This document shows, in pieces, positions 12,045-54,992 of a stretch of DNA of 64,000 bases. Each line of letters starts with the position of its first letter. The stretch's first letter is position 1. The position numbers and the translations under genes are program-made. The notes beneath the pieces are model-generated. The model did no database searches and had not been told where the DNA came from. It worked only from the letters and a program-made list of their open reading frames with translations. Source of the DNA: Mustelus asterias (taxonomy: Eukaryota); contig NW_027590120.1 in NCBI RefSeq assembly GCF_964213995.1, positions 1,364,001-1,428,000 on the forward strand, written 5' to 3'.

Positions 12045-13250
12045 ATGGAGAAACCGTGGAAATGTGGGGACTGTGTAAAAGGATTCAGATATCCATCTGC
12101 ACTGGAAACTCATCGACGCATTCACACCGGGGAGAGACGATTCAGCTGCCCTGTGTGTGGGAAGGGTTTCACTGTTTCATCGAACCTGCGCACACACCAT
12201 CTCACTCACACCAATGAGAGACCGTTTAAATGCTCTGACTGTGGGAGCGGATTCAAAAGCTCTGGAGAACTGGTGTCCCACCAGCGCATTCACACTGAGG
12301 AGAGACCGTTCAGCTGCTCTCACTGCTCAAAGAGATTTAAAACGTCATCCAGTCTGTGGGAACATCAGCGAGTTCACACTGGGGAGAGACCATTCACCTG
12401 CTCTGTGTGTGGGAAGGGATTCACTCAGTCATTCCACCTGCTCAGACACAATCTCACTCACACCAATGAGAGACTCTTTAAATGCTCTGACTGTGGAAAA
12501 GGATTCAAAAGCTCTGGTGAACTGGTATCCCACCAGCGCACTCACACTGAGGAGAGACCGTTCAGCTGCTCTCACTGCTCAAAGCAGTTTAGAACATCAT
12601 CCAACCTGCGGACACACCAGCGAGTTCACACCGGGGAAAGACCATTCACCTGCTCTGTGTGTGGGAAGGGATTCACTCATTCATCCAGCTTGCTGAAACA
12701 CAAAGTCACTCACAGCAATGAGAGACCCTTTAAATGCTCTGACTGTGGGAGCGGATTCAAAACCTCTGGAGAACTGGGGTCCCACCAGCGCATTCACACT
12801 GAGGAGAGACCATTCACCTGCTCTCACTGCTCAAAGAGGTTTAGAACATCATTCAACCTCTGGAGACACCAGCGAGTTCACACTGGGGAGAGACCGTTCA
12901 CCTGCTGTGTGTGTGGGAAGGGATTCAATCATTCATCGAACTTGCGCGCACACAATCTCACTCACACCAATGAAAGACCGTTTAAATGCTCTGACTGTGG
13001 GAGCGGATTCAAAAGCTCTCAGGAACTGATGATCCACCAGCGCATTCACACTGAGGAGAGACCGTTCAGCTGCTCTCACTGCACAAAGAGGTTTAGAACG
13101 TCATCCAACCTGCGGACACACCAGCGAGTTCACACTGGGGAGAGACCATTCCCTTGCTCTGTGTGTGGGAAGGGATTCACTCAGTCATCCAGCCTGAGGA
13201 ACCACAAAGCCACTCACTCCAAGGAGAGCCCCTTTAAATGCTCTGCCTGA
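12045..13250 (+). CDS. C2H2 (Kruppel-type) zinc-finger protein, 14 fingers, 401 aa
   Basis: ACCATGG start, MEKPWKCGDC..., 14 CxxC-x12-HxxxH fingers with TGERPF/TNERPF/TEERPF linkers. The exon acceptor is at 11702-11703 (TTACAG); the upstream part of the exon, 11704-12044, holds a remnant finger region interrupted by stops. Confidence 0.88.
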   Translation: MEKPWKCGDCVKGFRYPSALETHRRIHTGERRFSCPVCGKGFTVSSNLRTHHLTHTNERPFKCSDCGSGFKSSGELVSHQRIHTEERPFSCSHCSKRFKTSSSLWEHQRVHTGERPFTCSVCGKGFTQSFHLLRHNLTHTNERLFKCSDCGKGFKSSGELVSHQRTHTEERPFSCSHCSKQFRTSSNLRTHQRVHTGERPFTCSVCGKGFTHSSSLLKHKVTHSNERPFKCSDCGSGFKTSGELGSHQRIHTEERPFTCSHCSKRFRTSFNLWRHQRVHTGERPFTCCVCGKGFNHSSNLRAHNLTHTNERPFKCSDCGSGFKSSQELMIHQRIHTEERPFSCSHCTKRFRTSSNLRTHQRVHTGERPFPCSVCGKGFTQSSSLRNHKATHSKESPFKCSA

Positions 13251-13632: not shown

Positions 13633-14309
13633 TACAGTTCTGGGATTATTCTTGTGAATCTTTCTTGCCCCTTCTCCAGTGCCTCTATTTCCTTTTTCTA
13701 AATGGTAAATTGCACTGTTGGTAAATTTGAGATATTTTTACTCATATTACTATGAGATCAAGTCCAATCATTCCCCGATCCCATTCACACAAACCCGCAG
13801 ATCTCTCAGGAGAACAAGGTCATCAATCTGTATTTTAAATGCTCCAGATCAGTTAACTGTGTGACAGACCACACCTTTCAAAAGTGATTAAATATCAAAG
13901 GCAGACTCAGAGTTGTCACATGTTGAAGTTGCTGGGTGAATAATATTGACTGACTGAAATGTTTTCCCAGTCGAACCGCATCTCAATTCTGAGTTGGGTG
14001 ATTACTTTTTCCCGGTGTACTTAAAACGGTATCTATTAATTATCCTCTTGCACTGGGCACTCAGTACTTGTGCATTAGACAGACGTCAAACTATCGGCAT
14101 CATTTTTCAGCTTAATTCGGGGAAAGATCGACCTAAAGAAATATACTGACATTGAGTTTGAAGGAAAGAGAGTTGAACCGAGAAAGAGACAGAATGACTG
14201 ATAATGTGACAGAGAACAAGAGGATGAGAAAGACGCACTCAGCCTGGGCTACAATTTGATTGGAGAAAGCCAGCTGCACTTCGTCGTCAACTAACAGTGA
14301 TAGGTCCAA

Positions 14310-14473
14310 AGCTAACGTCATCTCAGGCAGACTAGCCAATCGCAGCACTGAGAAACGCCCGCCAGTTTCCCAATAATTGCAGTTGCCTCTGATCTAAGTT
14401 GACTCTGTGATATAAGAATAGAAGCAGCAACATAGTTTCAACAGTGTCGCTGTTTACTATCCAATCAGGAACC
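14310..14473 (+). promoter_or_regulatory. Putative promoter of TCR V segment 1
   Basis: CRE-like TAACGTCA at about 14313-14320, CCAAT boxes at about 14336 and 14461, TATA-like GATATAAG at about 14409. Confidence 0.5.
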
Positions 14474-14909
14474 ATGTGTTCCCTGTGTGCTTTACTGATA
14501 ATAGTGCCCATGCTGCCCGGTGAATCTGAGCTCAGATCCTCAGTGTGTGTTTCATCGGTTATATTCACTCAGATTTCACACACATTCTATATGTTGTTAC
14601 AGGAACCAATGGCCAAGATTCAGTTTTCCAGGACCTGCCCGAATTCACGGTCCAGGAAGGACAGACGGTAATATTGAACTGCAATTTCACAACAAAATAC
14701 ACTGGCGAGACTCTCTTCTGGTACATTCAATATCCCGGGGAAGCTCCGAGATATTTACTGAAGAAATACGGCAAGGGACAGGGGGATAAGTCTCCAGATT
14801 TTCCTGACCGGTTTTCAGCTGAATTGGCCCAAGACAAGAGAACAGTTCCTTTAACTATCACCGGGGTCCATGTCTCTGACTCTGCCGTGTATCACTGTGC
14901 GCTGAGCCC
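14474..14909 (+). CDS. T-cell receptor alpha/delta-type V gene segment (V1), germline and open
   Basis: Leader exon 14474-14519 (MCSLCALLIIVPMLP-G), 83-nt GT-AG intron, V exon 14603-14909 GTNGQDSVFQ...VILNC...LFWYIQYPGEAPRYLL...DSAVYHCALS. The conserved Cys, Trp and Cys are present. Confidence 0.9.
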
Positions 14910-14948
14910 CACACTGCTACAGAGGCACAGTCAGCCCGTACAAAAACC
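14910..14948 (+). promoter_or_regulatory. 23-bp-spacer recombination signal sequence of V1
   Basis: Heptamer CACACTG 14910-14916, spacer of exactly 23 nt, consensus nonamer ACAAAAACC 14940-14948. Confidence 0.93.
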
Positions 14949-15411
14949 GGCAAAGGCACTCTCGCCTCCTCTTACTGAATCAGATCTGTGAACTGCATTG
15001 TGGATTTGTAATTTGTAATTTAACCCAAATCATATAAAGACCAGCTTGGCAGAATTCTTCCTTTCTGTGCTACACAATGAGTCATTATACATCAAAGCTC
15101 TCTTTATATCGGCGGCGAGGGTTTTTTCATTTTCAGCGAGCAGCTCTTAATGGAAAACTCCAACCATGATAACACAACTATTTAAACTATTACCCATTAC
15201 ATACACGTCCAATTTAAAGATTGACGCTGTTAATGAAACCATATTGAGTTTAATACTCTAATTATTCTCTACCCCACAGAGCAGTGGTTGTGCAGTCGCT
15301 GGGTTTATTTAGAACCGATGTTAATAGATTTGTGGATATTAAGAGTAAAATGGGACTTCGGGTAGTGCAGGAAGGTGGTGATAAATAGACAGGTAGACAG
15401 AAGGGACATGT

Positions 15412-15694
15412 CCTCTTTTTAGGTCAAACCAAACCAAGTAAACAAACTCAGATTAAATCAGGACAAAGTAAAAGGGGCAGCTCCCCAAAAAGGAGGGGGA
15501 ACAGCCCGAACAGAAATCAAAGCACAAAGGAAACTTAAAAAACATCAAATTAAAATGTGATTATTAGGGTCAATAATGCACCCCAACCCCTGCGGTGCCC
15601 AGCGGGCGCGGAAAGCGTCAACCTCGCCCGTGGACACCACATGCTCCCTCTCCAGGGACACCTGGCCGCGAACGTAGCCGCGGTAGAGGGGTAC
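15412..15694 (-). mobile_element. 3' end of a Tx1-like non-LTR retrotransposon with target-site duplication
   Basis: PLYRGYVRGQVSLEREHVVSTGEVDAFRARWAPQGLGCII resembles Tx1-type ORF2 C-termini. It is flanked by the direct repeat AAGGGACATGT at 15401-15411 and 15695-15705. Confidence 0.65.
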
Positions 15695-15950
15695 AAGGGA
15701 CATGTTCCAAAGGCAAAGTGGCCACTGCTGGTCTTTCATCTGCCCAGCTCACTGACGTCACAAACTACGTGTTGATTGGATGAAATATGGGACAAAGGAG
15801 CAGTGAACCGATTGGTTGTCACCTGTCGCTCTGTCAGGAATAGACCAATCGGGTTGCCGGACCGGATGTCACTGCACATCTTCTGAACTCTTACCTAAAA
15901 CTATTGAGCTCAAACTCACTGAGTTCAGATCCAGCATCAGCTCTGTGAAC

Positions 15951-16505
15951 ATGTTGGGACCTTTTACTCATTCTTCACAGCTACTGGTCTCCTAACTGGG
16001 AGCTCCTAAGTTAAACAATTATCTGTTGTTAATGTTACTCACAGAGTATTTTTACTTTTAACCGTGTGCTTCCTGCATCTACAATATATTCTGTTAATTT
16101 GATAATCTTGGTTGTAATAAAATGATAACAAAATGTTCTCTATTTCTGAAATAGGACAGATATTCCTGCTGCAGACTCGGTCGCACAGGGGCCGGTTACA
16201 GCGACACAGTTCGAAGGCGACTCTGTGATCATCAATTTCAGCTATTCCACCACTGCTACTTTCTACTCATTGCAGCTATACCGTGAGAATCGGGACAAAG
16301 CTCCCTCGCTCTTAAGCTACATTCCACTTGTTGGGGAAGCTTTCAGAGCAGAGGGTATAGGAATTCGATTTTCTTCATCTTTAGACACTTGAAAAAATGA
16401 GGGGAATTTGACTATCCGTGAGCTGCGGCTGATTGACAGCGCGATGTATTTCTGCGGACTGAGATGTACAGTGACAGGAAGCTGAGGGACCCTCGTACAA
16501 AAACA
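15951..16505 (+). pseudogene. TCR alpha/delta-type V pseudogene (V2) with defective 23-RSS
   Basis: Perfect CRE TGACGTCA at 15753-15760 upstream. Broken leader from ATG 15951. V exon from 16160: DSVAQGPV...VIINFSYST...LQLYR...LDT*KNEGNLTI...DSAMYFCGLR (first Cys>Phe, Trp>Leu, TGA 16390-16392). RSS TACAGTG 16467-16473, 23-nt spacer, ACAAAAACA 16497-16505. Confidence 0.88.
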
Positions 16506-17623
16506 CTTCCGCAATGTGACAGGGTGTGTGGGATAGGGGCAGGGTGGGGAGAAACCTTGTCTTTCTAACCTATCAGCAGAATGTGCTGGTTTCAAATAAA
16601 TGTCAATAAATTCCAAGCCGAGAGTAACAGATTTGGGGAAGTTTTCCGCTATTTCATTTACATCAAACACATTTCGGACATAATCCAAACTGTCTGAGAG
16701 AATTTACACAATTTTGTAAAATTTGCAATATAGACATGGGCATGGCCTGAGACCAGTAACAACCAGCAGCGTCTCTAATAGTTTACAAGGCAAGTAAAGT
16801 TGAAGGAAGGAGACAACCCGAGTGTAATATAAACAGGCACCGGATCCAGTGACATTAGGACAGACATATGGGCTCAGTGTAGTAATAGCTGAGACACTAG
16901 TTTGTGCCCTGTGAGAAGAGGCATGGTCTAGACAGTTGTTAGCCAAGGCATGGCCTTGTGTATTCGAAAAAAGGAGATTATCTAATAAAATAATACATGA
17001 AACATAGTTTAATGTTACAATAGCAAAAAAAGAGCATAAAGTATTATAAATAGAGATAAAGTTCAGTACAGCACTTATACCGAACAACGCAATTATTTAA
17101 TGATAAGACAGCTTTGGTGTAATCTTTTGAATTTCTTGCAAAAGTAATTCCTGAACAATAATGTTCTGAACTGAACTGAACATCACGGGGATGTTCTGAA
17201 CTCTCCCACATGGTGGCAGCAAACGCTCAGAATCTGCTGACATCGCAGCGCAATGTTTGGTTAATATTTTCATGTTATTTCACACTGAAGGACAATTAAC
17301 ACGTTTCATTTAATTATCAACATTTTCACCTGATGTAACCCGTCTCCATTGCGGATGATATTTTAAACCGAGTGTTACTTTCCTTTTAACACATTTCACT
17401 GCATCGACAGAGCGGCAGGAGTTTGTGTTGTTCATGGTGGGCAGCAAATGTCGCAACCACGCAGTAAATGTAATAACCATGTAAAATCCCACCGTTTCTG
17501 GTGGGATTTCTGCTGATTGATCTTGGGATGTGTGCGCAGGAAACTATTGATGTGCCAGTGTGTGTGACCGGCTGTTATAAACAGCCCTCAGCAAAAACGG
17601 GCTGTGACCCAGAAACCTGTGGC

Positions 17624-17966
17624 CGTTTTTGTACGAGGACTAAACTCGTTCCCATCTCCGCGAGACTCTGTGCACGGTAATAGACCGCGGTGTCAGACAG
17701 CCGCAGATCCACGATTGTCAATCGGTACAACTTGTCTGACTGTTGGACTCTATCAGAAAACCGGTTCTGAGCGAAATCTGCTTTGAATTCAGAACTGCCG
17801 CCAGTGTCCCTGCGGACTGCAAACTCGGTCTGCCTGCCTGGGTACTGACGGTACCAGAATCAATAATCGGTATTGTCGGTAAAGGTGCAGCTTAAAGTGA
17901 CATATTTTTCCTCTGGCGGTGTGAGTGAGGAATCCCGCTGAGTAACAGAATCTCCATCGCTCTGAT
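17624..17966 (-). pseudogene. Inverted TCR alpha/delta-type V pseudogene (V3) with degenerate 23-RSS
   Basis: Minus-strand V exon 17966-17663: DGDSVTQRD...VTLSCTF...DY*FWYRQYPG...RFS...LTIVDLRLSDTAVYYRAQS (TGA 17862-17860, second Cys>Arg). Heptamer CGCGGAG 17662-17656, 23-nt spacer, nonamer ACAAAAACG 17632-17624. Possible degenerate leader at 18140-18083. Confidence 0.88.
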
Positions 17967-19277
17967 CTGGAACACATGGTTAAAAAAACGGAAATAATCA
18001 ACTGAACTGAACTGAAAGTGACAATTAGTGGTCAGTATTACATTGAAAAAAATGGAGTTCAGACCTTTGAAAAAAAACTTGCCACAAAATTGATCTGTGT
18101 CGGTATTACATCCGAAAGAGCGTAATTCGCCTGACTTCATCTCACTCAGAGTTTTCATCCATTTCTTTCTCCATCATCTCTATATTTGGCTTCCCTTGTG
18201 GTAATGATGTACAGATTATAAACACACGCTGTGTAGGGAGACATGTCCACAATGCCCTTTTGCATCCATTTGGACCATTACATTTATCATATTCAATGAT
18301 CCAGAAGTGAAAACAACTCTGCAGCACTAACCTATTAACCACCTTTCAATCACATTTGAAGACCTCTGTCAGGCTGTCCCTCCAGCGTCGCTTTGCGAGA
18401 TCAAATAACCTCAGCCAGCACAACTATTTCTGATAGCTATTTCATGTCACTTGCGGTATCACCTTCGAAAAGATTTTTTCTCATTAACTCCTGTGCCTTT
18501 ACATCTTTTCCTAACAATCCTCATGTGGTCGGAACACGTTTCAATACAAGTGTTAAATAGACTATTCACTTTTCAAATCCAATTCTCTGAAATTAATCTT
18601 AGAAGTTTTAAATTTCTCACCGACGCTGAAAGCTGCCCAGAGCACAGCGAGAACGGGGATCCACATCGCTGCTGCTGTGTCAGAACGGTGCAGAATAGAG
18701 ATTTGCAAAAGAGCAAATGTCACCTGCTGCACGACAACACAGACTCAGACCACATTTCTGATGTCACTTCCTGCAGGGTGTCACACGGATGGAGCTATCG
18801 GAGTTGCCTCTCACCAATTTGATGTTTCTTAACCAGGGGTACGTGTTTATATAGAGGAACGCAAACATAACGCCATATCCCACTGATCATCGGTAAAGGT
18901 TTCTGAGTGCAGACAGCTGGATATCCAAGATATATAAGCGGGAAAATCACAAATATGCGCTCCCACACTAACACAACAAAAGCGATAATTCAACGACCAC
19001 CTAAAGATACAATGACCAGCAAAGGTCTATGAAGTGACGTATAAGAGCTAGTAAAAGGGATTATGAAAGGAGACTTGCAAAGCAGATCGAGATCAATAAG
19101 ATAAATATTGGTTACATAAAGGAAAAGAGGGGATCAGGAGCAATTTCAGTCCATTGGAGACTGAAAGTGGTGATATTGTTATTGACTGTGGGAAAAGGGG
19201 ATCCGTAGTTGCCCTTTAGAATATGGCGCTGAGCTGCTGACTTGCACCGCTGCTGTCCGAATTACACAAATAGAAAT

Positions 19278-20592
19278 AGTAAGTAATCTCACAGCACCAG
19301 GTTAAAGTCCAACAGGTTTATTTGGTAGCACGAGCTTTCGGAGCGTTGCCCCTTCATCAGGTGAGTGAAGAGTTCCGTTCACAAACAGGGCATGCATAGA
19401 CACAAACTCAATTACAAGATCGTGATTGGAATGGGAATCTTAACAGGTTATCAAGTCTTCACCGGTGCGGACAATGTGAGTGGAGGGAGGGTTAAGCACA
19501 GGTTAAAGAGATGTGTATTGTTTCCAGACAGGACAGTTAGTGAGATTTTGCAAGCCCAGGCAAGTCGTGGGGGTTACAGATAGTGTGACATGAACCCAAG
19601 ATCCCGGTTGCGGCCGTCCTCATGTGTGCGGAACATGGCTATCAGTCTCTGCTCAGCGATTCTGCGTTGTCGTGTGTCATGAAGGCCGCCTTGGAGAACG
19701 CTTACCCGAAGATCAGAGGCTGAATGCCCTTGACTGCTGAAGTGTTCCCCGACAGGTAGGGAACTCTTCTGCTTGGTGATTGTGGAGCGGTGTCGATTCA
19801 TCCGTTGTTGTAGCGTCTGCATGGTCTCCCCAATGTATCATGCCTCGGGGCATCCTTTCCTGCAGTGTATCAGGTCGACAACGTTGCCGAGTCGCAAGAG
19901 TAGGTACCGTGTACCTGGTGGATGGTGTTCTCACGTGAGATGATGGCATCCGTGTCGATGATCCGGCACTTCTTGCAGCGGTTGCTGTGGCAGGGTTGTG
20001 TGGTGTCGTGGTCACTGTTCTCCTGAAGGCTGGGTAGTTTGCTGCGGACAATGGTCTGTTTGAGGTTGGGCGGTTGTTTGAAGGCAAATAGTGGAGGTGT
20101 GGGGATGGTCTTGGCGAGATGTTCGTCTTCATCGATGGCATGTTGAAGGCTCCGGAGAAGATGTCGTAGCTTCTCTGCTCCGGGGAAGTACTGGACGACG
20201 AAGGGTACTCTGTCTGTCATGTCCGGTATTTCTCTTCTGAGGAGGTCTGTGTGGTTCTTCACTGTGGCGTGTCGGAACTGTCGATCGATGAGTTGAGCAC
20301 CATATCCTCTTCTTACGAGGGCGTCTTTCAGCGTCTGTAGGCGTCTGTTGCGATCCACCTCATCTGAGTAGCAAACTATCTAGCCTTCAGGAGAACAGTG
20401 ACCACGACACCACACAACCCTACCATAGCAACCTCTGCAAGACATGCCGGATCATCGACACGGATGCCATCAGCTCACGTGAGAACTCCATCCACCAGGT
20501 GCATGGTACATACTCTTGTGACTAGGCCAACGTAGTCTATCTGATAGGCAGCAGGAAAGGATGGCCCGAGGCATGGCAGATTGGCGAGACCG
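19278..20592 (-). mobile_element. Penelope element (GIY-YIG 3' region and terminus) with an inverted 5' segment (20370-20592, plus)
   Basis: DRVPFVVQYFPGAEKLR...AFKQPPNLKQTIVRS...PCHSNRCKKC...MQTLQQRMNRHR...LPVGEHF...RRIAEQRLI. The segment 20370-20592 is an inverted duplicate of the internal region, a configuration typical of Penelope insertions. Confidence 0.9.
19329..19363 (-). ncRNA. Minimal hammerhead ribozyme motif in the Penelope terminus
   Basis: Reverse complement CAC-CUGAUGA-A-GGGGC-AAC-GCUCC-GAAAGCUC-GUG: intact core, stem II, palindromic AGCU stem III and a UC cleavage site. Confidence 0.7.
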
Positions 20593-20725
20593 TGGTTCGA
20601 ATTGGAACTTTCCACTGCGGGCAAACGGTGGTTGTTGAAAACACGGAGAGCCCGGATGCCGCTCTGTATTACTGTGCGATACAGCCCACACTGAGAGGAA
20701 AGACGCTAGTCACTGTACAAAAACC
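20593..20725 (+). pseudogene. 3' remnant of TCR V segment (V4) with intact 23-RSS
   Basis: ...VVVENTESPDAALYYCAIQ followed by CACACTG 20687-20693, a 23-nt spacer and ACAAAAACC 20717-20725. The 5' part is replaced by the Penelope insertion. Possible orphan leader at 18789-18838 with CRE-like TGATGTCA at about 18759. Confidence 0.85.
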
Positions 20726-21009
20726 TCACGCCTGTTTTCAGTTGCTGCCGCAATCCCACAGATAGTACAGCAGGCAATAGCTGCCAGAACCAGAGCAGGA
20801 AATGGAGCATATGAGCGGGGTTGCCCGGGGCTTTGCAATTCCCGACAGCGACTTTACTTTTCTCACACATATTGACAGTCATGATGTAACTCATCCGATT
20901 GAAGAAACAGTCGCTCAGTGAGTGTGGGCTTTATGGTGAGGAAATCATCCGCATTCTTTAATTTAAGCATGATACTCCACTGTCTCGAATCAGACATTTG
21001 GTCTATGGC

Positions 21010-21785
21010 CAAATACAGAAAGACCTGGACAATATTCAGGTTTGGACTGATAAGTGGAAGCAACGTTCAGGTCACACAAGTTCCAGGCAATGACCATCTC
21101 CAAAAAGAGAGGACCTGATGAACTTTCCTTGATATTCAAAGGCATTACCATCGCTGAATCCTCCCCCTGCTCTCCCCTTCCTCTCCCCCACCCCCAACAA
21201 CATCCTGGGAGTTGACCGAAAACTGAACTGGACCGAGGAATATGAATATCGTGGCTACCGGAGCCGATCAAAGGTTAGGAATCCTGTGGTGAGTAAATCG
21301 CCTCGTGACTCCCGAAAGCCTGTCCGCCACCTACAAGGTGCAAGTCAGGGGTGTAAATGGAATGCTCCATACTTGCTGGATCAGTGCAGCTCCAACAACA
21401 CTCATTATGCTCGACCAGATACAGGACAGGGCAGTCCGCGTGATTGCTAACCATTCCATAAACATCTCTTCCAGTCACCACCGACGAACAGTGGCAGCTG
21501 TGTGTAATATCTACGGATATACTGCAGCAACTCAACAAGGATTTTTAGGCAGCACAATCCGAACACATGAACACTGCCATGTAGGAGGACAAGGGCAGCT
21601 TTCACATGGGAACACCTCAATCTAGCGGTTCCCTTCCAATTATTCCACATCCTTACTTTGAAATATATCGCTGTTCCTTCACGGTCAATGAGTCAACACC
21701 CTGGACTCCCTCACTAACAGCACAGTCGGTGTACCTGCACCTCGGGACCGCAACGCTTCAAGAAGGCAGCTCACTACCACACAAT
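21010..21785 (+). mobile_element. Degraded non-LTR retrotransposon 3' fragment; the same family occurs at about 57060-57450 and 62220-62800
   Basis: DLDNIQVWTDKW...LSATYKVQVRG...LDQIQDRAVRVI...HRRTVAA resembles a LINE RT C-terminal region. Confidence 0.7.
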
Positions 21786-21790
21786 ACACC

Positions 21791-22265
21791 ACGGATTGTC
21801 CCGGATTTACAATAACAGTCGTGTTGCTGGGTAAGTCTCTGTGGCAGTTATTCTACATCTCATTTGTTAAATACGGCAACAGATTTTGATCCGTTTTGCA
21901 TTTCGTTTCAGGAACGAGTGCCGAGGAGTCGGTGTCCGTGGGCTCATTTGAGTTAACGATGCTGAAAGAACAGCCTGTAATTTTCTGCCATACTTACTCC
22001 ACTTCTGAGTCCATCCTCAGCTCATGTTTTTTTGTTTACTACATAAATTGCGGCATGGGAAAATCAGCAATATTCCAGCCCCCACTGTCCAAACCCCCTG
22101 CCAGCAGAAAGCACTGGATATTTTGCTCTGTGTGTTTTCTTAGAAATGGTGAAGAGTAAATATTCAATATTTTGATTGATACCCAGTTCCGTTCACATTC
22201 AACAATAACTTGATTTCGGAAACATCGGAGCAGTGAGTTTTGATAATGTTTCTGCCCCGTGACAG
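21791..22265 (+). pseudogene. 5' part of TCR V pseudogene (V5), truncated
   Basis: Leader 21791-21830 starts ACG instead of ATG (-DCPGFTITVVLL-G), GTAAGT donor, 81-nt intron. V exon from 21912: GTSAEESVSVGSFELTMLKEQPVIFCHTYSTSES. No recognisable YYC or RSS; the sequence joins the tRNA-Leu unit at about 22266. Confidence 0.65.
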
Positions 22266-23273
22266 TGACAGTGATTTTTCCAATCAGCTGACCATCGTCA
22301 TTTTAGCCATTGTCTTCCTACAGGTCCGTCACCCGAAAGACATGTTCCTCATTAAAAAAATCTCCGTTTAATTCCAGATTTGTCACATGCCAGCGAGCCC
22401 ATTGTCGTGAAAACAATGTCTCTGAACCATTGGACCACCCGGGCTCCGCCATCACCAGCTCAGTGTTGCCTTTTCCATCATTCCTTGCGTCAGATAATCC
22501 ATCCTCCCTTGTAGTCTGTGACGAACCATATCTTCTGCCATTTTTAAGAAGTGACCCCGATTTACAATCTGAAAATGCAGAGAAAACTCAGCAGACTAGT
22601 TGAGATTTAACAAATATATGAATAATATAACTCTTCCCTTAGTCGGCAATGAAAAGGATTTGGAAATATTTCTGCCCAGTTTCCAGCCATGGGAGGCGGA
22701 CGTGATAACTGCAGTGGAATGTTTGCTGTCATTGGTTGAACACATCACTGGTGTTAGATCCAGAAGGGGCCATTTTGCAGGATAAGTTTGTGGTGAAAGC
22801 GGTCTGGTGTGAAAATTAAAATAACAAAAAGGTCATGAAAAAAGCAATTGTAAAACACGCTGTAATCTGCTGCTCTGGCGGTTAGAGTTTGACACTTTCG
22901 CTGCTGTGTTGATTGCAGGGCAGGAAATGAAGATTTATTGCTCTCCTCCAACCACGAAAACAGTTATTTCCCGGGAGAACACAGAAATCCCAGTCTCGCC
23001 TTGTATCCTATTATTTCTGAAGTGAATACCCTGAACAAATTCAACAGCAAGTCATGGTGTCCTTTCTGGGAACCAGACAAAGTTGAGGACAATTTAAATG
23101 GTGCCAGCGCTTCACTGCAGTTCATTGCGTTTCTAACTGGAGATGATCGTTGTTTGTTACAGAGTTCAGGATCATCTGATTCGGTGAAGATTTCCTGCTG
23201 GCCCATCTCCACGGATTCTGGAATATTTCAGTATCAATACAAGAAAAGGACATGATTGCTACGTCTGCCTCGT

Positions 23274-23670: not shown

Positions 23671-25126
23671 CAAAACCAGACAGCAATATTTCCAAATGCC
23701 ATTCAATACAGAGTGAGGGAAAAGTTTCATAATTTATGTTTTTGCTAAATGTTAACTGATATGCTGAGTATTTCCAGCATTTTCTGATTGCGAAGTCAGG
23801 AGTCACTCGGTAAAAACAACAAAAGTGAAGGTCTGTAGCAGAGAGCAAGGTAGGATGGATCAACGGACAAAGGAATGCTGGACAAAGCAATATTGAGCAG
23901 GTGATGCTGGAGGCCGGGTGGTCTAGTTTTTCAGAGTGAAGGCTTTCACCGCCAGGGCCCAGGCTTAATGACTGGGGACAAATTGTGAAAATAGAATTTG
24001 TGATGAAAATATTGTCTCTTTCTCATTCCTGATCAACTAATCACAATTGCTGTTTAAAAGCAGCATGCCAGGACGAGTAACCTCTTCCTGTGCTGTAATG
24101 TTCTATAATTGTTTCATTTTCATCCACACTGCTGCTGCATTTAAAGTTTAGTAGTTTATTTTTTTATTGCCACAAGTAGACTTACATTAACAGTGCATGA
24201 AGATACTGTCAAAATCCCCTAGTCGCCTCACTCCGGCGCCTGTTCGTGGACACTGAGGGAGAATTTAGCATGGCCAATGCACCTTTCCAGCAAGTCTTCG
24301 GGCTGTGTGGAAGGAGTGGAGCAAGTTAGTGTGGATGCTGGAATTGGAAACAAAAAGGGAAAATGCTGGAAAATCTCAGCATGTCTGGCTACATCTGTAA
24401 GAAGAGAAGAGAGCTAACGTTCCGAGTCCAGATCACCCTTTGTCAAAACTGGGCGGAGTGGAGTTGCTCCGATAGAGAATACAAACGGGAACACAGGCTG
24501 AATGGTTGTCTGCTGATATAAACAACAGATCGCAAACATTGAGTCTGCAGTCCCGGCCCAGGGGATAGATTGGGACTTTCTAACTGAGGCTCAAATCTTG
24601 TCATGTCCGCTTCCCGTCATTCCTCATTGTGACTTATTTTTATTGAAAGTTATTCAAAATAAAGCAATGAATACAGAGATGATCAACTCATTGCAAATCT
24701 CTCACATCAGCGTCACTGAGGGTCCAGTGATCAGGATCAGCGCCGTGACGCGGTTTAGATTCCCAGTCACGGAGTGAATAACTTTTTGTTCAATTCTTCA
24801 TTTAATGAAAACACGCCTCAGAGCGTCTGTGAAGGGAGCAACATCTAAATCTTTCAGCCGGATGAACTTGCATCTCAGTTGGAAAAGTCAGAGATGTAAC
24901 ACTAACGATAAACTCTGAAGAAGATTCACATGACACGCACAACATACATGTCAGATACACACACAGCACACATGTCAAATCATGTCACTTTCAAGTTCCG
25001 TCTTTTAACCTCCTGCTCTCCACCTCAGACATTTCCACATTCATCAAAAATCTCCAAACTCAAACCCCACCCTGTGCCTTAATCCATTGATAATGCTACC
25101 CGTACCGCAAGTACTTTGCAGCATTT

Positions 25127-25199
25127 GGCTCCATAGCTCAGTGGTTTGAGCACTGGTCTTGTAAACCAGGGGTCGCGAGTTCAATTCTCACTGGAGCCT
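25127..25199 (+). tRNA. tRNA-Thr(TGT), near-intact
   Basis: GGCTCCATAGCTCAGTGGTTTGAGCACTGGTCTTGTAAACCAGGGGTCGCGAGTTCAATTCTCACTGGAGCCT, 73 nt. It has A21>T and one C:A mismatch in the T stem. Confidence 0.75.
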
Positions 25200-25429
25200 G
25201 CCGACAAAACTTTGCTAATATGAGCTGTAGGGAAAAGGCAGATCGAGTGGGAGGCCTTATGGGTCGAGGGGCAGATTGGGTGCAACTTTAGAAAACAAAA
25301 ACGTATTCTCATTCGTGCAAAAATAGAAAGAGCAGAACATACTTGACGAGCTAAAAAATGTAAATATTGATATTAAGAATAGAATAGATGCGTTTGTACT
25401 CGAATGCATGAAGGTGAAGCAGATAATTG

Positions 25430-26478
25430 GAAGGGAAATTACATTTTGGTCTTTCTTGCCGGCAGACTGGAGTTCAAGAATAACAAGGTGTTTCTGCTGT
25501 TGCATTGGGTTTTGTTGAGACCAGGTTGAATATTCTGTGCAGATGTGATAGTCACATTTAAAAAGGGATATGCTTGCATTGGAAGCGGTAAAGAGAAGGT
25601 TCACCAGATTGCTCCCTGGGGTGAGGGAGTTGTCCTGTGATGAAATTCTCTGGAGTTTAGAAGAATAAGAGGCGATCTCTTTAAACCTACACAGTTCTGA
25701 TTAGGTTTGACAGGATGGAGACTGAGAGATTTTTTTTCTGCTGGTCGGGAATCTAACCCACTGCGGCACAGATAAGGGGCTGGTCATTTCGTGCGAAGAT
25801 AAGGAGCAATTACTTCACTCAAAGGGCGAGAATCTTTGGCATTCTCTGTACCTGACAGTTATGTATGCCCCCCTCATCGAGCACATTTAACGCTGGGATA
25901 AACAGGGTTCTGATCTCTTGAAGAATTTAGCGATATGGGGAGCTGGTGGAAAAACAAAGTTGCAGCCCAACATCAGCCATGATGGTATTGAATGGTGGAA
26001 ATCTCGATGGACCGAGTGGTCTGCTCCTCCTCCTATGATTCATGTTAGAATAAAAACAGAAAGGACTGGAAGTTCTCAGGAGGGCTTGCAACAAATGTGG
26101 AGCAAAACAGAGAGTTAAGTTTCCGAGTTCAATATGACTCTTTTCAAACCAGTAGCCACGTGTGAATTATATGATTCCAAAATCACGAGGGGTGATCACG
26201 AGGGGTCACGGGCTCAAGCTGAGAGGGGCGAAGTATAACTCAGATATCAGAGGGACGTTTTTTACACAGAGGGTGGTGGGGGCCTGGAATGCGCTGCCAA
26301 GTAGAGTGGTGGAGGCAGGCACGCTGACATCGTTTAAGACTTACCTGGATAGTCACATGAGCAGCCTGGGAATGGAGGGATACAAACGATTGGTCTAGTT
26401 GGACCAAGGAGCGGCACAGGCTTGGAGGGCCGAAGGGCCTGTTTCCTGTGCTGTACTGTTCTTTGTTCTTTGTTCTTA
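25430..26478 (+). mobile_element. Two CR1 3' fragments (old 25430-26045; young 26185-26478)
   Basis: TRGHGLKLRG...FFTQRVVGAWNALP followed by a (TTCTTTG)n tail. Confidence 0.8.
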
Positions 26479-29088
26479 TAACAACTAGCACAACATCCAG
26501 ACTGCGAATTGAATTGGATCCAGGCAGTGAAAGCCTTGAATTTAAACTGCTGCAGGATTTATGTTGGAAAATTGTTCAGGAAAGTGAGCTGCCAACTGAA
26601 AGTTTGGAGGTTTGAGAGCACCCCGAGCCGAATAGACTCCCTCTATTTCTGTTTCTACTTATATTCCAACAAAGATATTCTTTGTATCCTTCTGCAATAG
26701 GGAAATATTGTCCAAACTTTGCCAGTCTTGCTAATATTCACTAAATTGTCATACAAATCGATCGATGAATATTCATTTCAAATAAAACGAGATACCATTA
26801 GGTCATGCTGTTGTATATTTCCAACCTATTAGAAATATGGGATTCACAGTAACTGAGAGAAATTGATGCTGTAGTTGCAGATATAGAACTGGAACGCACC
26901 ATCACACCGAGTGAATCCACTGTCTGTTTAAATGTTGATCAGTGAAAATTTCAATCATCCTCTGCTGTGTAACACACGGCCACGGAGTCAATGAGCAATA
27001 GCCAGTCAAAAGAATCCTGTATCAGTCAATCTTTCTCGCAACTTTCAAACATGTTGTTATTCTCTGTACCATTTGCCATTGAGGTACATGAATAAGTGAA
27101 CGCAGTTTGTGATGGTAAAAGATGTGTTCACCCCTTCTGGGAACTGAATCACATTGATGCACAGAGGAACACACACAGACACCGAGAGTCACAGAGGGGT
27201 GACGAGACACAAACACATGTCACTAACTGGGTTCAGTTTTGTTCCATTTCTGGCTGGGGTTTTGGTGAATTCTAGCTGATGAACAGAAATGAAGGAACGT
27301 AGAAGTGAAACAGGAAAAACAGATGGGAATACTTGAAAGATTTTGATTCCATTGAACGAATAATTAATTCTGCAGCCACCTAAAGGAATGAATGCTGAGC
27401 AGCGCAGTGGGTGAGGTTCAAATCTTCGTGAGAAAACAGCAATTTCAAATCCACCGCCTGAGCCGCTTGGCCACCACTGCAACCGATGTCAATGTGTTAG
27501 TGTCACTCAGATCAAACCATTAAATAGTTACAGCAACAAAAGGGAACATTCGGTCCCAGGAGATCACGGTGCACCTTTCATCCCTCTTTTTTCTTCCTTA
27601 CAAAATGCCACACGCCGAACAGACAAACAAGCTGCACATTTTGGCAGTGGTGGCATTTAAACCCACAACTTTTGAGATATTGAAGCTTTGATTTAGCAAC
27701 TAAAACCATTCGGCCCCACTGCCAGTCGAAGCCACGTGCTAACCGTTGCGCAGAGTGATATCTGCAACGGATGAGAATATAATTGGGATTTTGGATGGAA
27801 TATTTCGCCCCTCAAGCCCCTCACAATATTTTGGAATCATAGCCAAGCACTTGTTTTCCATCTGTTTCATTTCTGACTTTTCTAGCTCTGATGAAAGATC
27901 CAGATGCAAGATTAGCTTTGTTTCTCACTCCACAGACGCTGCCAGATCTGGTTTCATTCAATGAGGGTTTCCTTTTCATGGTGTCAGTTCACACAGCAAT
28001 ACAAACGAATTACTCTCTGGCTGGGGATTGAATCCAGTCCAGAGTGATGAAAGTGCCAAATCCAAACCACTGGTCCAGCAGGGAAGCTGACAGTGACTTT
28101 CCCAATCAGCGGATCATCGTCATTTTAGCCATTCTCTTCCTTCCCTTCCGTCACACAATAGACAGGTTCCTCATTTTTGAAAAACAATACTCTGCTTCTT
28201 ACCACATTTGCCACCTGCCATCGAGCCCATGGTCGTGAAAACGATGACGTTGCACCATTGGAATACCCGAGTTCCACCATCACCAGCTCAATGTTGCCTT
28301 GTCTATCATTCCTTGTGTCAAATAATACATCCTCCTTTGTTTTCTGTGCCGAACCTCACCTTCTGTCCTTTTTATAGAGTGACCCCTGACTTCACAATTA
28401 GAAAATGCAGGAAAAACCCATCAGACTAATTAAAATTTGCAGATATATGAATAAAATAACTTTTCCCTCAGTCTGCAATGAAAATGATTTGGAAAAAACA
28501 AATCTGCCAAGTTTCATACCATGGCAGGCGGACGCGGTAACTGTCATAGAATCATTCCTGTAATTGGCTGAACACTTCTCTGGTGTTGAAACAGAAGTTG
28601 CCATTTTGCAGGAGAGGTTTGTGGTGAAAGTGGTCTGGCGTGGAAATTAAAATAACAAAAGGATCGTGGCCTGGTCTGGTGGTTAGAATTTGACACTTCC
28701 GCTGCTGTTTTGATTGCAGGTCAGGAAATGAAGATTTATTGCTCTCCTCCAATCCGTGAGAACAAATATCAGTTATTTCCCGGCAGAACGCACAAATCTC
28801 AGTCTCGCCTTGTGTCCTGTCCTTTCTCAAGTGAAGACCCTGAGCAAATTCAACAGGAAGGCATATTGTCCTTTCTGGGAGACAGACGAGCTTAAGGACA
28901 GTTTAAATGGAGCCGGCCCTTCACTGCAGCTCATTGTGTTTCTGACTGGAGATGATTTTTGTTTGCTACACATTTCAGGATCATCTGATTCGGTTACGAT
29001 TTCGTCATGGCCCATCCCAACTCCATGAGTTTTGATATATTTCAGTATTAATGCAATGGAACGACATGATTAGGGTACTTTCTTGTGT

Positions 29089-29170
29089 GGTAGCGTGGCC
29101 GAGCGGTCTAAGGCGCTGGATTTAGGCTCCAGTCTCTCTCGAGGCGTGGGTTCGAATCCCACCGCTGCCA
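29089..29170 (+). tRNA. tRNA-Leu(TAG), intact
   Basis: GGTAGCGTGGCCGAGCGGTCTAAGGCGCTGGATTTAGGCTCCAGTCTCTCTCGAGGCGTGGGTTCGAATCCCACCGCTGCCA, 82 nt with a variable arm, and a TTTTT terminator at 29184-29188. Confidence 0.93.
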
Positions 29171-29249
29171 GAGTTGGTGCAAGTTTTTGTCCTTGGAGCT
29201 GAAGTCCAACAGCTCGGGTTGAACGGAGGAATCTGAGCGGTGTCGTTTT

Positions 29250-30486
29250 TGACAGATGCCCTTGCGAGAACAGGATATTGCGCTTGACTAATCGATCGAC
29301 AGTTCCGACAAAAAGAAATTGCCCCTTAGAGTCCTGGGATGTGTAGGTTAGAGGGATTAGCGGGTAAATATGTGGGGGTAGGGCCTTGGTGGGATTGTGG
29401 TCGGTGCAGACTGGATGGGCCGAATGGCCTCCTTCTGCACTGTAGGGTTTCTATGATTTCTATGACACGCCACAGCAAAAACACGCACCGACCTCCTCAG
29501 AAGACAAGTACGGGACACAGCCCTCAGAGTGCCCTTCCTCCTCCAGTACGTCCCCAGAGTGCAGAAGCCAAGACATCTTAGGAGTGGAGAAACTATGACA
29601 TCTTCTTCGGAGCCTTCAGCGTACAATCGATGAAGACGAATATCACGCGAAGGCCATCTCCACGCCCCCACTACTTGCCTTCAAAAAACAGAGCAACCTT
29701 AAACAGACCATTGTTCGCAGAAAACTACCCAGCCTTCAAGAGAACAGCGACCACGACACCACACAACCCTGCCACGGCAACCTCTCCAAGATGTGTTGGA
29801 TCATCGACCCGGATGCCACCATCACACGTGAGATCAGAATCCACCAGCTGGACGATACATACACATGCAACTCGGCCAACGTTGTCTACCTCATACGCTG
29901 CAGGAAAGGATATCCCGAAGCATGGTACATCGCCGAGACCATGCAGACGCTACGACAACAGATGAATGGACACCGCTCGACAATCACCCGGCAAGAGTAT
30001 TCCCTTCCTGTCGGGGAACACTTAAGCAGTCAAGGGCATTCAACCACCGATCTTCGGGTAAGCGGTCTCCAAGGCGGCCTTCAAGACGCACGACAACGCA
30101 GAATCGCTGAGCAGAAACTGACAGCCAAATTCCATACATGAGAACGGCCTCAACCGGGACCTTGCGTTCATGTCACACGACTTGTAACCCCCACCATTTG
30201 ACCTGGTCTTGCAATACCCTACCAACTGGCCTGGCGTGAGCCAATTCACACCGCTTTAACCTTTCATTGTCCCCCTCTCCACTCGCATTGTCTGTACCTG
30301 TAAAGACTTGATTCGCTGTTAAGACACGCATTCCAACCATTATCTTGCAAATGAGTCTGTGTCTTTCTATGCCCTGTTTCTAAACCCAACTCTCCACTCA
30401 CCTGATGAAGGAGCAGTACTCCGAAAGCTCGTGCGACCACGTAAACTGATTGGACTTTAACCTAGTGTTGCGAGACTTCTTTCTGT
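29250..30486 (+). mobile_element. Penelope element 3' portion (GIY-YIG) with a nested HE1 SINE tail (29310-29465)
   Basis: YTCNSANVVYLIRCRKGYPEAWYIAETMQTLRQQMNGHR...LPVGEH...RRIAEQKL. The terminus matches 19278-19370. Confidence 0.9.
30399..30433 (+). ncRNA. Minimal hammerhead ribozyme motif in the Penelope terminus
   Basis: CAC-CUGAUGA-A-GGAG-CAGUA-CUCC-GAAAGCUC-GUG. Confidence 0.7.
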
Positions 30487-30789
30487 GAGGGAGATCAACA
30501 ATGATTTTACTGAATCACGGAACAGGCCCTAATGAAGGAGCAAATGGTTCATTGCAACACCTCTTCCCTATTCTCTGATGTTCTTCTGTACAGCTCATTG
30601 TTCTGAGAATAGATTCAAATTGTTCCTGCTCCTCTCTCTGACGTCATGAATTGAAGAATGAAGACACTCGGCGCTGGTTGGGTGAAATGTAGGATAAAGG
30701 AGCTGTGAGCTGATTGGGTGTCTCCTGCTGGATAGGAATGAACCTATCACCATTGGGGCCGGATATTACTCAACATTTTCTGAACTTTG

Positions 30790-33700
30790 AGCTAAAACAA
30801 TTGAGCTTTAACTCATTGAGTTCCCTTGGGCATTTACTGGAGGAACGCTTTTTAATTTGGAATTACAAGATGAGTTGATACATCAGGTTGAAAGTAACGA
30901 GTGTTTTCTTGTATTAAGTGGCATGGGGGGTTCTGAATCTAACCATGCGAACCAGCACGAACACAGTGCAGTTGAGCATTGTAGTCAGGCCGATTGGGGG
31001 CGATGTGCTGTCATTTGTTTCTGTAGTGCAGTGCTTGTAAAGGACCCGGGTCCGAAACCGGGCAGAAGAAAACATTAAGATGTTTCATGTCGGGTGAGAG
31101 AAATCTGAATTAATTCAGTTTGTTGCTGAACATTATCCGAGTCTCGATTCATGTTATCTTTGCTTGACGTCGGCCTCAAATGCTTCCTGTAAAATAAATG
31201 CTGAATATTTTGACGCACTGACAGGAAAGAAACGTTTCTATTTTGACAACATGCGCATATTAGCATTTCGTTCAGTCTACACCAGAATTTAATGGGTTAA
31301 TAGGTGCAGACTAACATAGTGAATCACTATCTGAAACATGCCTAATCGTAGTGTGTGCTCAAAAAGACAGATACAAGTGAAACGGTAAGTGAGCACTGTC
31401 AGCTGTTCCTGTAGTGTAGTGGTTATCACGTTCGCCTCACACACGATAAATTCCCAGTTCGAAACGGGCAGAAATGCTGTTGGATCGTTCGCATTAAGCG
31501 TGAGCGGAGTCTGCACGATGTAGGTTCGTTGCTCAACGTCATGCGAATCCGATATAATCTTATATGGTCATGTTATATGGGCTTTGACGTCGGCCTCAAA
31601 TGCATTTACGAAAATCGGAACTGATGCATTTTAGGACGCAGGGAATGAAGAACTCTATTGTTTGTTCATATATTCGCAACTCGTGCAGTCCACAAATGTA
31701 TTCAATGGGTTTTTGGTGCAGACTAACATAGTTAATCACCATCTGAAACATGTCAAATTGTATTGTGTGCTCATAAAGAGAGACACAATTGAAATTGGAA
31801 CTGAATTGGAGTAAATGGCGCGCATTTCGCAGAAGCACGTTTTTAAAATTGCTCTTCACAATAAAGAAAAAGCTAAAACCACTCAGACCCATGTGGAAAT
31901 CGAGATTCAGTGCGGACCTCCTGGACTTCCGATAGATGAACGTGATTTAGGCGCCAGAATACTTCACAAACAGAATAGCGGGGATTCAAGTATATTTTAA
32001 AGGATGAATGTTGTCAATCTCAAATAAGCACCATGGCATGTGTATTACGCAGTGACTCTATTTCTTTTGTTGGTCAGTCATGTTTGCAAGAAAATGTTGT
32101 ATATTTCAGAGGTATCCAATTCAGAATGAGGACATCTGTGTTAAATAAACGTACTGAAATTAAATATTGAATAACTACAAATATTTGATATAATTGTTTG
32201 AAATTATTTGACGGGAGATGAGAATGATGTATTAATGATTGAGCGGAAATCGTTGCCGCCTGAGACATTTGCCTGACGAAGTTCAAGATAAGTTGAGATA
32301 TCAGGTTGAAAAATCGGATTTGTTCTTCTATTAAGTGACATGGACCCTCAATGTGACCAGGAGAACCTGCAGCAACACAATGTAGTTCAACATTGTAGTC
32401 AGGCCAATTGGCGGTGCGGCGCATTCTCTTGTTTCTGTGGTGCAGTGGTTATCACATTCGCCGAACACGTGAAATATCACCGCTTTAGAACCGGGCAGAA
32501 CATACATCAGCTTTCCCATGTAGGGTGAGGGAAGTCTGTATGATTTCAGATCGTTGCTGGACATCATCCAAATCTCGATGTTACATCTTTGCTGTGAGCT
32601 CGGCCTCAAATATTTTCTGTAAAATAAGAAATGCTGATTCTTTTGACGCACTGACAGGAAATTTTCAATTTTGACAACCTGCACATATTAGCATCTCTTT
32701 CAGCCTATAACAGAATTTAATGGGTTTATAGGTGCAGACGAACATAGTTAATTATCATCTGAAACATGTCTAATAGCAGTGTGCGCTCAAAAAGACAGAC
32801 ACAAGACATAGTGCAAGCGAACTAGAGGAAATGACGCACGTTTCCTGCAGCCTTTTTTTGAAATCGTTCTTCATAACAAAAAAATAGGAAAAATCACTCA
32901 GCCAGATGAGGAAATCGAGACTCAGTGCGGATCTATTGGACTTTCCTATAGATAGCCGGAATTTATGCGCCTGAATGTTTCACACCCATAATTAAAAGGC
33001 TCAAGTGCAACTAACAGATATATTTTCAATCTCTTCCATTTAAATGTAGTTGATTTTGTTTAACATCAGCGTTTGTTCAAGTTCAAAATTGCGAACTGCA
33101 TTGCCCGGTGACTCGCTTCCTTCTGTTGGTCAGTTATGTTTGCAATTCATGATATTCAATTTCAGAGATATTCAAATCATAAAGAAGATCTATGTGTTAA
33201 ATAATGTACTGACATTAAATATTGGATAATGAAACACATACTGAGTACAATTGTAAAATGAGCTTTGACGAATGTCATCTGGACACGGAACGTCAGCTCT
33301 TTTTTCTCCTTACAGATACTGCCAGACCTTACGAGATTTTCCAGCATTTTCTCTTTTGGTTTCAGATTCCAGCATCCGCGGTAAATTGTTTTTATTACCG
33401 AGTACAATTGGTTGAGATTATTCGAAGCAAGATGAGTATGATGCATTAATGCATGAGCAGAAATCATTGCTCCCTTAGATATTTTCCAGACGAACGCTTC
33501 TAAGGTTTGAAGATAAATTGAGCAATCAGATTGAAAGTAACGGCTATCTTCCTGAAACATGGGGGGCGGGGGGCGGGGGGGGGGGGGGGCGGAAGGGGGG
33601 GGGGCGGAGGAGAGGGGGCTCTCTGTCTAACCATTTGAACGTGCAGCACCACAGCGCAGTTGAACATTGCAGACTGGCCGATTTGCTATCGGCTCGGTCA

Positions 33701-34060
33701 GCTGTTTCTGTAGTGTGGTGGTTATCAGGTTCACCTGACACGTGATAAGTCCCTGGTTCAAAACCAAGCAAAAACGTTCATTAAGCTTTCTCATTAAGAT
33801 TGAGGGAAATCTGTATCATTCCCGTTCGTTGGTCAACATTATCCGAATCTCGAGATTACAGCCACCTTACCTTTGCTCTGACCTCGGCCTCAAATGTTTT
33901 CTGTAAAATAAGGGATACTGATATTTCTTTGACGCACTGACAGGAAAGGAACGTTTCGATTTTGGCACCGTGCACATATTCGCATCGCGTAGTGCAGTGG
34001 GTGTCATGTTCGACTCACACGCGAAAGTTCCCGCTTCAAGACCAGGCAGAAATATTTCCA
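30790..34060 (+). pseudogene. Array of five tRNA-Val pseudogenes (about 31017, 31405, 32431, 33704, 33982) in an inverted copy of the 3.0-5.1 kb Val unit
   Basis: GTTTCTGTAGTG... heads with mutated arms. The flanks are reverse complements of 3000-4100. Confidence 0.8.
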
Positions 34061-48470: not shown

Positions 48471-48499
48471 GTTTGTCCCCCTCTCTCGTCGGAACATTC

Positions 48500-54936: not shown

Positions 54937-54992
<56 letters not shown>

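Follow-up and report, generated by a model that had tools for sequence, protein, structure and literature searches.

A probable duplicated cassette of five TCR alpha/delta-type V segments, mostly dead, in the antigen-receptor complex of the shark Mustelus asterias

In the 64-kb stretch of Mustelus asterias DNA that was analysed (hereafter the window), five V-derived segments, V1 to V5, were identified between positions 14474 and 22058, in mixed orientation with V3 on the minus strand, which bears out the original prediction of five such segments within about 8 kb. The island has as its left neighbour a plus-strand C2H2 zinc-finger (ZNF) exon with 14 fingers (12009..13250), and tRNA genes flank it on both sides; a tRNA/ZNF setting had also been predicted. 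ARAGORN at its default threshold reports five tRNA genes in the window; a relaxed threshold gives 12 calls, which probably include tRNA-derived repeats. No further V, D, J or C was detected in the window by protein HMM, DNA HMM and J/D scans, in line with the claim that the island has no D, J or C nearby, and neither V nor J segments were found within 20 kb past either end of the window.

V1 is the only segment that combines an open frame with a leader and a usable 23-RSS. On the plus strand, its leader exon (14474-14519) and intron (14520-14602) precede an open TCR alpha/delta V domain exon with both cysteines and the tryptophan (14603..14909) and the signal CACACTG-23-ACAAAAACC (14910..14948). 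The open frame, cysteines, tryptophan and CAC heptamer of a functional gene are thus present, and the deviation lies in the leader splice donor, which reads GTGAAT, whereas GTGAGT is seen in all 13 distinct paralogues whose leader could be read; the change is G to A at position +5. About 160 bp 5' of the start codon there is a plus-strand CRE-like site with one mismatch (14313..14320), which is not the same in the paralogue on scaffold C420. Compared with its paralogues V1 showed pN below pS in 10 of 10 cases, a weak signal since each comparison holds 3-11 changes and the ancestry is shared.

V2 (16160..16505, plus strand) is a pseudogene with a stop codon at 16390-16392 that has lost its first cysteine and the tryptophan. 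Its 23-spacer RSS (16467-16505) has the broken heptamer TACAGTG, and the gene is broken in all six close copies. A perfect CRE, TGACGTCA (15753..15760, plus strand), is placed 5' of the degraded V2 leader, and positions 15412..15694 are a 283-bp insertion that is missing from the C182a, C104 and C124 copies of the island. The inverted V3 (17624..17966, minus strand) is likewise a pseudogene, with a stop codon at 17860-17862, the second cysteine changed to arginine and a 23-spacer RSS (17662-17624) whose heptamer is broken (CGCGGAG); intact paralogues of it exist at about 85% DNA identity. The minus-strand stretch 18650-18960 was considered as an exon start and rejected, as it matches only the island's own copies.

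V4 is preserved as a plus-strand 3' remnant (20587..20725) in which 7 bp are deleted and the 23-RSS (20687-20725) is intact. It is 92% identical to intact paralogues and matches the DNA V model with an E-value of 4.5e-18. Its former 5' part is replaced by an interspersed repeat with an internal inversion (19271..20594), which has copies on six large scaffolds at 87-92% and no Pfam match, and which is presumably a Penelope-like family. V5 is a plus-strand 5' remnant comprising the leader end, the intron and the exon start (21797..22058), with neither RSS nor CRE. It matches the DNA V model weakly (E 0.005), and the donor copy described below runs on into a V-like 3' part. V5 does not reach 22265, the end first proposed: a deletion of about 2.2 kb truncates it at 22057/22058 and also took out an inverted intact V retained on scaffolds C104, C124, C315 and C420. 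Positions 22058-22270, considered as the 3' end of V5, derive from the far side of this deletion. A RAG-mediated origin of the deletion was rejected, the breakpoint being about 150 bp from the nearest donor RSS.

The four 23-RSS with good nonamers expected for this island do exist, but the CAC heptamer is kept only in V1 and V4. Such signals are not due to chance, because 515 perfect 23-RSS were found genome-wide against 16 in a reversed control. The CREs expected upstream of several V segments were recovered for V2 and, with one mismatch, for V1; the one-mismatch site of V3 is about 500 bp distant. A one-mismatch CRE is expected by chance 0.1 times per 350 bp.

V1 to V3 exceed the Pfam V-set cut-off. 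The best single-domain PDB matches are TCR alpha chains for V1 and V3, while V2 matches light chains and alpha chains with little difference between the two. In a tree whose beta, gamma and light-chain outgroups were labelled from locus context, V1 to V3 stand apart from the in-genome beta, gamma, IgL and IgH-like V with support of 91/82. The V profile was built from a representative-protein search. For V1 to V3 these lines of evidence agree with the TCR alpha/delta identity originally assigned, and an Ig light-chain or non-rearranging V identity was rejected on the PDB matches, domain/RSS scans and tree. The arrangement of split leader, V exon and 23-RSS is complete in V1, with 23-spacer signals in V2 to V4 and none in V5. 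Judged by their sequence, all five are genuine V genes of TCR alpha/delta type, V1 being potentially the sole usable one.

The island block is present in six genome copies at 94-99% identity, one on the window's own scaffold C88, two on C182 (C182a and C182b) and one each on C89, C104 and C124, and these differ in breakpoints, insertions and deletions. At 99% identity or more, some of the copies may represent the two haplotypes or duplications introduced by the assembly. The C182 and C124 copies carry an extra V segment upstream of the equivalent of 13708-13724, in place of the ZNF exon. The plus-strand right flank (23769..33901), which bears tRNA genes for Thr (25127), Leu (29088) and Val (33703), is 99.8% identical to C182a across 10.1 kb and partly present in C182b, C89, C104 and C124; it was duplicated together with the island. 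Since the V1 equivalents are lost or broken in the other five island copies and the splice donor is altered here, we consider the actual use of the window's V1 in rearrangement possible but doubtful.

A search for a colinear donor of the island was successful: V-dense scaffolds contain colinear counterparts at 88-95%, and the arrangement V1-V4-V5-inverted V was found twice on C315 and once on C420. These donor arrays are mostly intact; the V4 counterparts are open and full-length, and V5 had already decayed there. The suggestion of a copied block therefore holds as far as the V-dense donors are concerned, but that of a unique orphon is not supported, the block being present six times. The V family itself is large, all 150 scored candidates (of 1673) matching V1 at E 3.5e-26 or better, with V1-like matches spread across dozens of scaffolds, among them C71, where they range from 4.5 to 19.2 Mb. 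One RSS pattern gave 260 matches against 1 in the control, and only 3 of the 260 fall on scaffolds with numbers lower than C71; with a looser pattern background swamped the signal and C88 was missing from the list. Intact V matches amounted to 44/61 for dense scaffolds against 15/55 for sparse ones, in non-independent samples taken around known matches.

Scaffold C88 (2.9 Mb, unplaced) contains six further V islands, all six RSS sites examined having proved to be such islands, and these include two NAR-TCR-type V pairs (NAR-TCR cassettes). The nearest ones found are about 130 kb to the left and 180 kb to the right of the island. An IgM cluster (V-D-J-CH1-4) is located at 158-172 kb, and the interspersion of alpha/delta V and NAR-TCR V with an IgH minicluster is a trait of the elasmobranch antigen-receptor complex. 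Constant-exon searches gave no match to TRAC or TRDC on C88, and no alpha J was found on it. C88 nevertheless resembles C71 in its V islands, whose RSS spacers fall into the same families, in its NAR-TCR cassettes and in its IgH constant exons, and this shared content suggests that V1 is in cis with an alpha J or a delta D. The original prediction that this is an undescribed locus is not upheld, given the six copies, the neighbouring islands and minicluster, and the similar small, mixed-orientation V groups tabulated over megabases in other sharks and a ray (PMC12227049 Table S1).

Outside the window, 19 TCR-delta constant exons were found in the assembly, all open, with splice sites checked in all of them, in separate cassettes that sit among IgM clusters, V islands, ZNF and tRNA genes. 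J segments were seen in 10 of the 10 cassettes read and D in 9, with 2-4 J each and some with germline-joined V-D. The TRDC exons form about 8 sequence groups with 84% to about 99% identity between groups. Three copies lie megabases apart on one scaffold, 98% identical and with differing D/J/V content. Homolog searches with a delta constant exon brought up ten proteins annotated as Mustelus asterias and a single whale shark protein. Pfam PF09291, the mammalian TRAC domain, has no match in the genome, and TRAC was found via the J array. Two TCR-alpha J-C modules were recognized, both with open TRAC exons, with constants 74% identical as protein and different J sets. The TRAC and TRDC exons agree with the signatures CLXTD(X)F and CLXXXFXP given in the literature.

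One alpha module is on C71, which carries 33 J along with three delta cassettes. In the 202 kb upstream of its first J there is no TRDC, D, V or gap, and the module therefore likely depends on distant V islands. The other, on C546, has a large J array and no TRDC on its scaffold; a gap 8 kb before the array separates the V and J regions. The canonical order of TRDC, TRAJ array and TRAC (outlined in PMC10322711) fails for the C71 module; for the C546 module, with its gap, it may still hold. The rule of a single TRAC and a single TRDC fails in this genome, and with it the premise that such segments normally lie in one translocon. We found no published account of multiplied delta constants or uncoupled alpha modules; Deiss 2019, Ott 2021 and Criscitiello 2006, which lay beyond the search, may bear on delta copy number.

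We propose with good confidence that the island is a mostly dead five-V cassette that originated in a V-dense array and was multiplied, tRNA flank included, within the antigen-receptor complex of the shark. V-dense arrays likely gave rise to the cassette, segmental duplication would then have multiplied it together with the flank, and such islands would form a margin of the V pool that is subject to birth-and-death turnover. Following the 12/23 rule, RAG would connect V1, through deletion or inversion, with an alpha J or with a delta D on the same chromosome, at a distance of at least hundreds of kilobases, and the alpha/delta receptor modules likely draw on scattered V islands such as this one. 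More tentatively, with the balance falling just short of even, the locus may have dissolved into chromosome-scale Ig-like clusters: at least ten functional delta V-D-J-C cassettes per haploid genome (some with V-D germline-joined) and two delta-uncoupled alpha J-C modules, supplied across distances of hundreds of kilobases to megabases from V islands that ZNF/tRNA segmental duplications carry along and multiply, V1 being one such long-range V.

An orphon V is a V gene outside the main locus that is unable to rearrange in cis. That the island is a true orphon, moved by tRNA/ZNF duplications away from any cis J, with a decaying V1 that never rearranges, is unlikely. The lack of alpha J or TCR constant exons among the finds on C88, the four dead segments of five and the state of V1 and its copies would fit it; against it stand the likeness of C88 to C71, bearer of J-C modules, and the similar scatter on J-C-bearing chromosomes in published shark and ray complexes (PMC12227049 Table S1). 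It is very improbable that the multiplicity is largely an assembly effect, in which a single ordinary alpha/delta locus would be represented by unpurged haplotypes and duplicated contigs. One delta pair is 100% identical over 3.3 kb, several others are 99.3-99.9%, the island flanks reach 99.8%, most copies are on unplaced scaffolds, and C546 has its V-J gap, but 19 copies exceed two haplotypes, and neither the divergence of their groups, the three unlike cassettes on one scaffold, the dissimilar alpha modules nor the distinct insertions and deletions of the island copies would be expected from it. That the island is the distal edge or interior of one continuous translocon split by assembly is largely refuted, since the naming of shark TCR loci as translocons and the conventional-looking V-dense scaffolds and C546 J array are outweighed by the V-free 20 kb past both window ends, the IgM cluster and ZNF/tRNA DNA on C88, and the misfit of 19 delta cassettes and a second alpha module.

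Returning to the multiplied cassette, the island by itself shows only the usual turnover, rich in pseudogenes, of a shark arrangement already known. The wider significance lies in its context, since in published descriptions sharks have their antibody genes in miniclusters but their TCR loci as translocons. If many delta cassettes and two uncoupled alpha modules prove genuine and are expressed, TCR delta would have shifted to a cluster organisation beside the IgM clusters, which raises the questions of how a single T cell restricts itself to one delta chain, whether delta is still deleted when alpha rearranges and how far RAG reaches across ZNF/tRNA DNA. The private substitutions of the island V genes make long-range use checkable by repertoire sequencing.

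Like classical orphons the island is a duplicated block without local D, J or C and made up mostly of pseudogenes; unlike them it lies in DNA that is antigen-receptor complex by content, and many such islands share scaffold C71 with J-C modules. The elasmobranch complex outlined by Flajnik et al. 2025 (PMC12227049), in which TCR alpha/delta is described as a translocon, also has small alpha/delta and NAR-TCR V groups in both orientations, some of them pseudogenes, between IgM clusters and over megabases, as in the great white shark, where V exons between IgH clusters are reported across 8.2-17.1 Mb. It differs, as there described, in that the islands here are segmental-duplication cargo and the delta and alpha constant modules are multiplied; its Table S1 names no more than one delta constant gene model for any species, and zinc-finger or tRNA genes go unmentioned in its supplements (0 matches). 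Newts, with separated or duplicated TRA/TRD loci, and flounder and Galliformes, with additional TRD loci (PMC12698447), offer comparable cases in having a TRA module without embedded TRD, two TRA modules and extra TRD loci, although those cases involve one or two extra loci, against the 19 delta constant exons seen here. A further parallel is provided by the IgH miniclusters of cartilaginous fish as described in PMC6795676 and PMC12227049, which also consist of repeated V-D-J-C cassettes, some with V-D germline-joined, on the same scaffolds; the present cassettes encode TCR delta with several J each, and could also accept a distant V such as V1.

In the window, which covers C88:1364001-1428000, five V-derived segments (V1-V5) were found, all within positions 14474-22058, as had been claimed. 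The noted lack of D, J and C nearby also holds, with no additional V, D, J or C detected in the 64 kb and no V or J within 20 kb past either end. The Pfam V-set cut-off is passed by V1, V2 and V3; V4 is a 3' remnant (92% identity to intact paralogues) and V5 a 5' remnant. V1 retains a leader, an intron, an open exon and the recombination signal (RSS) CACACTG-23-ACAAAAACC; its splice donor is GTGAAT. Of the distinct paralogues, 13 have a leader that can be read, and all 13 carry GTGAGT. V2 is without the first cysteine and the tryptophan, carries a stop and has a heptamer beginning TAC. V3, on the minus strand, has a stop and an arginine in place of the second cysteine, and its heptamer is destroyed. 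The 5' part of V4 is gone at an interspersed repeat, and V5, truncated by a deletion of ~2.2 kb, was already decayed in the donor blocks. Given this state of the segments, one of the five could be a working gene.

The assignment to the TCR alpha/delta type is supported. Among single-domain PDB entries, V1 and V3 match TCR alpha chains best, V2 being less clear. A tree was built from 107 V domains, which a 90% identity filter brought down to 64 rows. In it V1-V3 group with V of the alpha/delta scaffolds, one zebrafish alpha V and one V of whale shark linked to a delta-type constant; the in-genome V of beta, gamma, light-chain and IgH-like type lie apart (support 91/82, the outgroups being labelled by locus context).

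When the genome (3.68 Gb, 5313 contigs) was searched with the island DNA, 23 of 28936 candidates were scored, and these included island copies at 94-99% on contigs C182 (two), C89, C104 and C124. The colinear donor that had been sought is represented among the same 23 by older blocks at 88-95% on C315 (two), C986, C1506, C1620, C178 and C420; on C315 and C420 the gene order is V1, intact V4, decayed V5 and an inverted intact V. The tRNA flank was copied together with the island, matching one C182 copy at 99.8% across 10.1 kb; private insertions and deletions distinguish the copies, and V1 is absent or broken in the five others. These data indicate that the block is probably a mosaic drawn from V-dense arrays and multiplied afterwards, the order of events following from parsimony. 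A V2 query gave exactly six close copies, every one broken. The island is real, and the proposal of an undescribed locus gives way to a further case of a known arrangement.

An 874-bp inversion (C89:71501-72374) splits V2 in the C89 copy. Window positions 39515-41289 recur at 99.7% within the C104 copy. Reverse-transcriptase-like frames lie at 6207-6926, 39465-41213 and 46631-49243, which we take to belong to LINE-type repeats, and one long open frame (54866-56017) encodes a rhodopsin-family GPCR (Pfam 7tm_1, E 3.5e-19).

One RSS pattern gave 260 matches genome-wide versus 1 in the control; among 100 of these that were listed, 37 fall on C71, six on the host scaffold C88 and three on scaffolds numbered below C71. 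All six C88 sites are small V islands of mixed orientation, partly decayed, two of them with NAR-TCR-type V pairs; the closest detected lie ~130 kb and ~180 kb from the window island. C88 also bears an IgM minicluster (158-172 kb), and genome-wide exon searches placed neither an alpha nor a delta constant gene on it. Intact V made up 44 of 61 matches in dense versus 15 of 55 in sparse scaffolds, in fetched DNA sampled around known matches and with copies that are non-independent. A single intact V with a perfect RSS also stands between two zinc-finger (ZNF) genes (e.g. C71:15161063-15168252); on the four scaffolds examined, of 13 equal-scoring matches, the copies of this unit share 99.3-99.8% identity. 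Head-to-tail stacks of 23-RSS with 61-bp spacing occur at C71:12229725-12229885, C87:2180780-2181001 and C106:637685-637906.

The alpha constant exon has two copies, mutually 74% identical (57 of 57 candidates scored). Alpha J arrays, located via a 12-RSS pattern, lie on C71 (33 J, 18.37-18.42 Mb) and on C546 (137-235 kb, sampled in part). Around the C71 module, neither V, D nor delta constant occurs in the 202 kb upstream, which is also free of gaps, and 96 kb downstream held no V; the surroundings searched contain ZNF and tRNA-like genes only. Six intact V in tandem, inverted (C71:19363811-19378842), ~0.95 Mb downstream, are candidates for inversional joining. The alpha constant gene has an intron that consists of a ~12 kb simple-repeat array (C71:18419840-18431750).

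The delta constant exon is present in 19 open copies (118 of 118 candidates scored), three of which lie on C71. Splice sites are present in every copy, and over 3.3 kb the copies share 84-100% identity and form about eight groups. Both constant exons match published signatures, and proteins labelled Mustelus asterias show 81-99% identity to one constant exon of the genome. Ten copies were read over 22 kb or more of upstream sequence; all ten have 2-4 J and nine have D, five free and four fused to V; four further copies have J within 10 kb. In three cassettes (C119:553382-553720, C96:1455124, C436:213429) the 3' end of D is fused with a NAR-TCR supporting V, and the 23-RSS of D is kept; the junction is the same on each of these scaffolds, which indicates that this join is inherited. 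At C71:11023484-11023820 a C90-type cassette has its D fused to a broken alpha/delta-type V, with 100% identity over ~500 bp downstream; as it was met once, either a germline or a captured somatic join would account for it.

V cassettes have been duplicated with tRNA/ZNF DNA, most of the cargo has decayed, and J-C modules lie without nearby V. By the rules of V(D)J joining, a 23-RSS V joins the 12-RSS of an alpha J or a delta D by deletion or inversion. The islands may represent a dispersed V pool drawn on at long range, of which V1 would be a putative member, a membership that we consider possible if somewhat doubtful.

In publications, alpha/delta V exons are described between IgH clusters and, in the great white shark, over 8.2-17.1 Mb in both orientations, the locus being termed a translocon despite the interspersed V exons (PMC12227049); shark TCR is likewise described as translocon (PMC6795676), and the canonical gene order is given (PMC10322711). 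In the nurse shark, BACs yielded just 17 germline V (PMC5931798), and receptor locus duplications are rated as uncommon, the cases listed having one or two extra loci (PMC12698447). A literature survey at listing level, with incomplete coverage of key shark studies, gave no report of many shark delta cassettes. The multi-module architecture around the island differs from the published translocon picture and, rather than the island itself, is the part deserving follow-up; assembly redundancy and unplaced scaffolds are among the main risks to this reading of the architecture.
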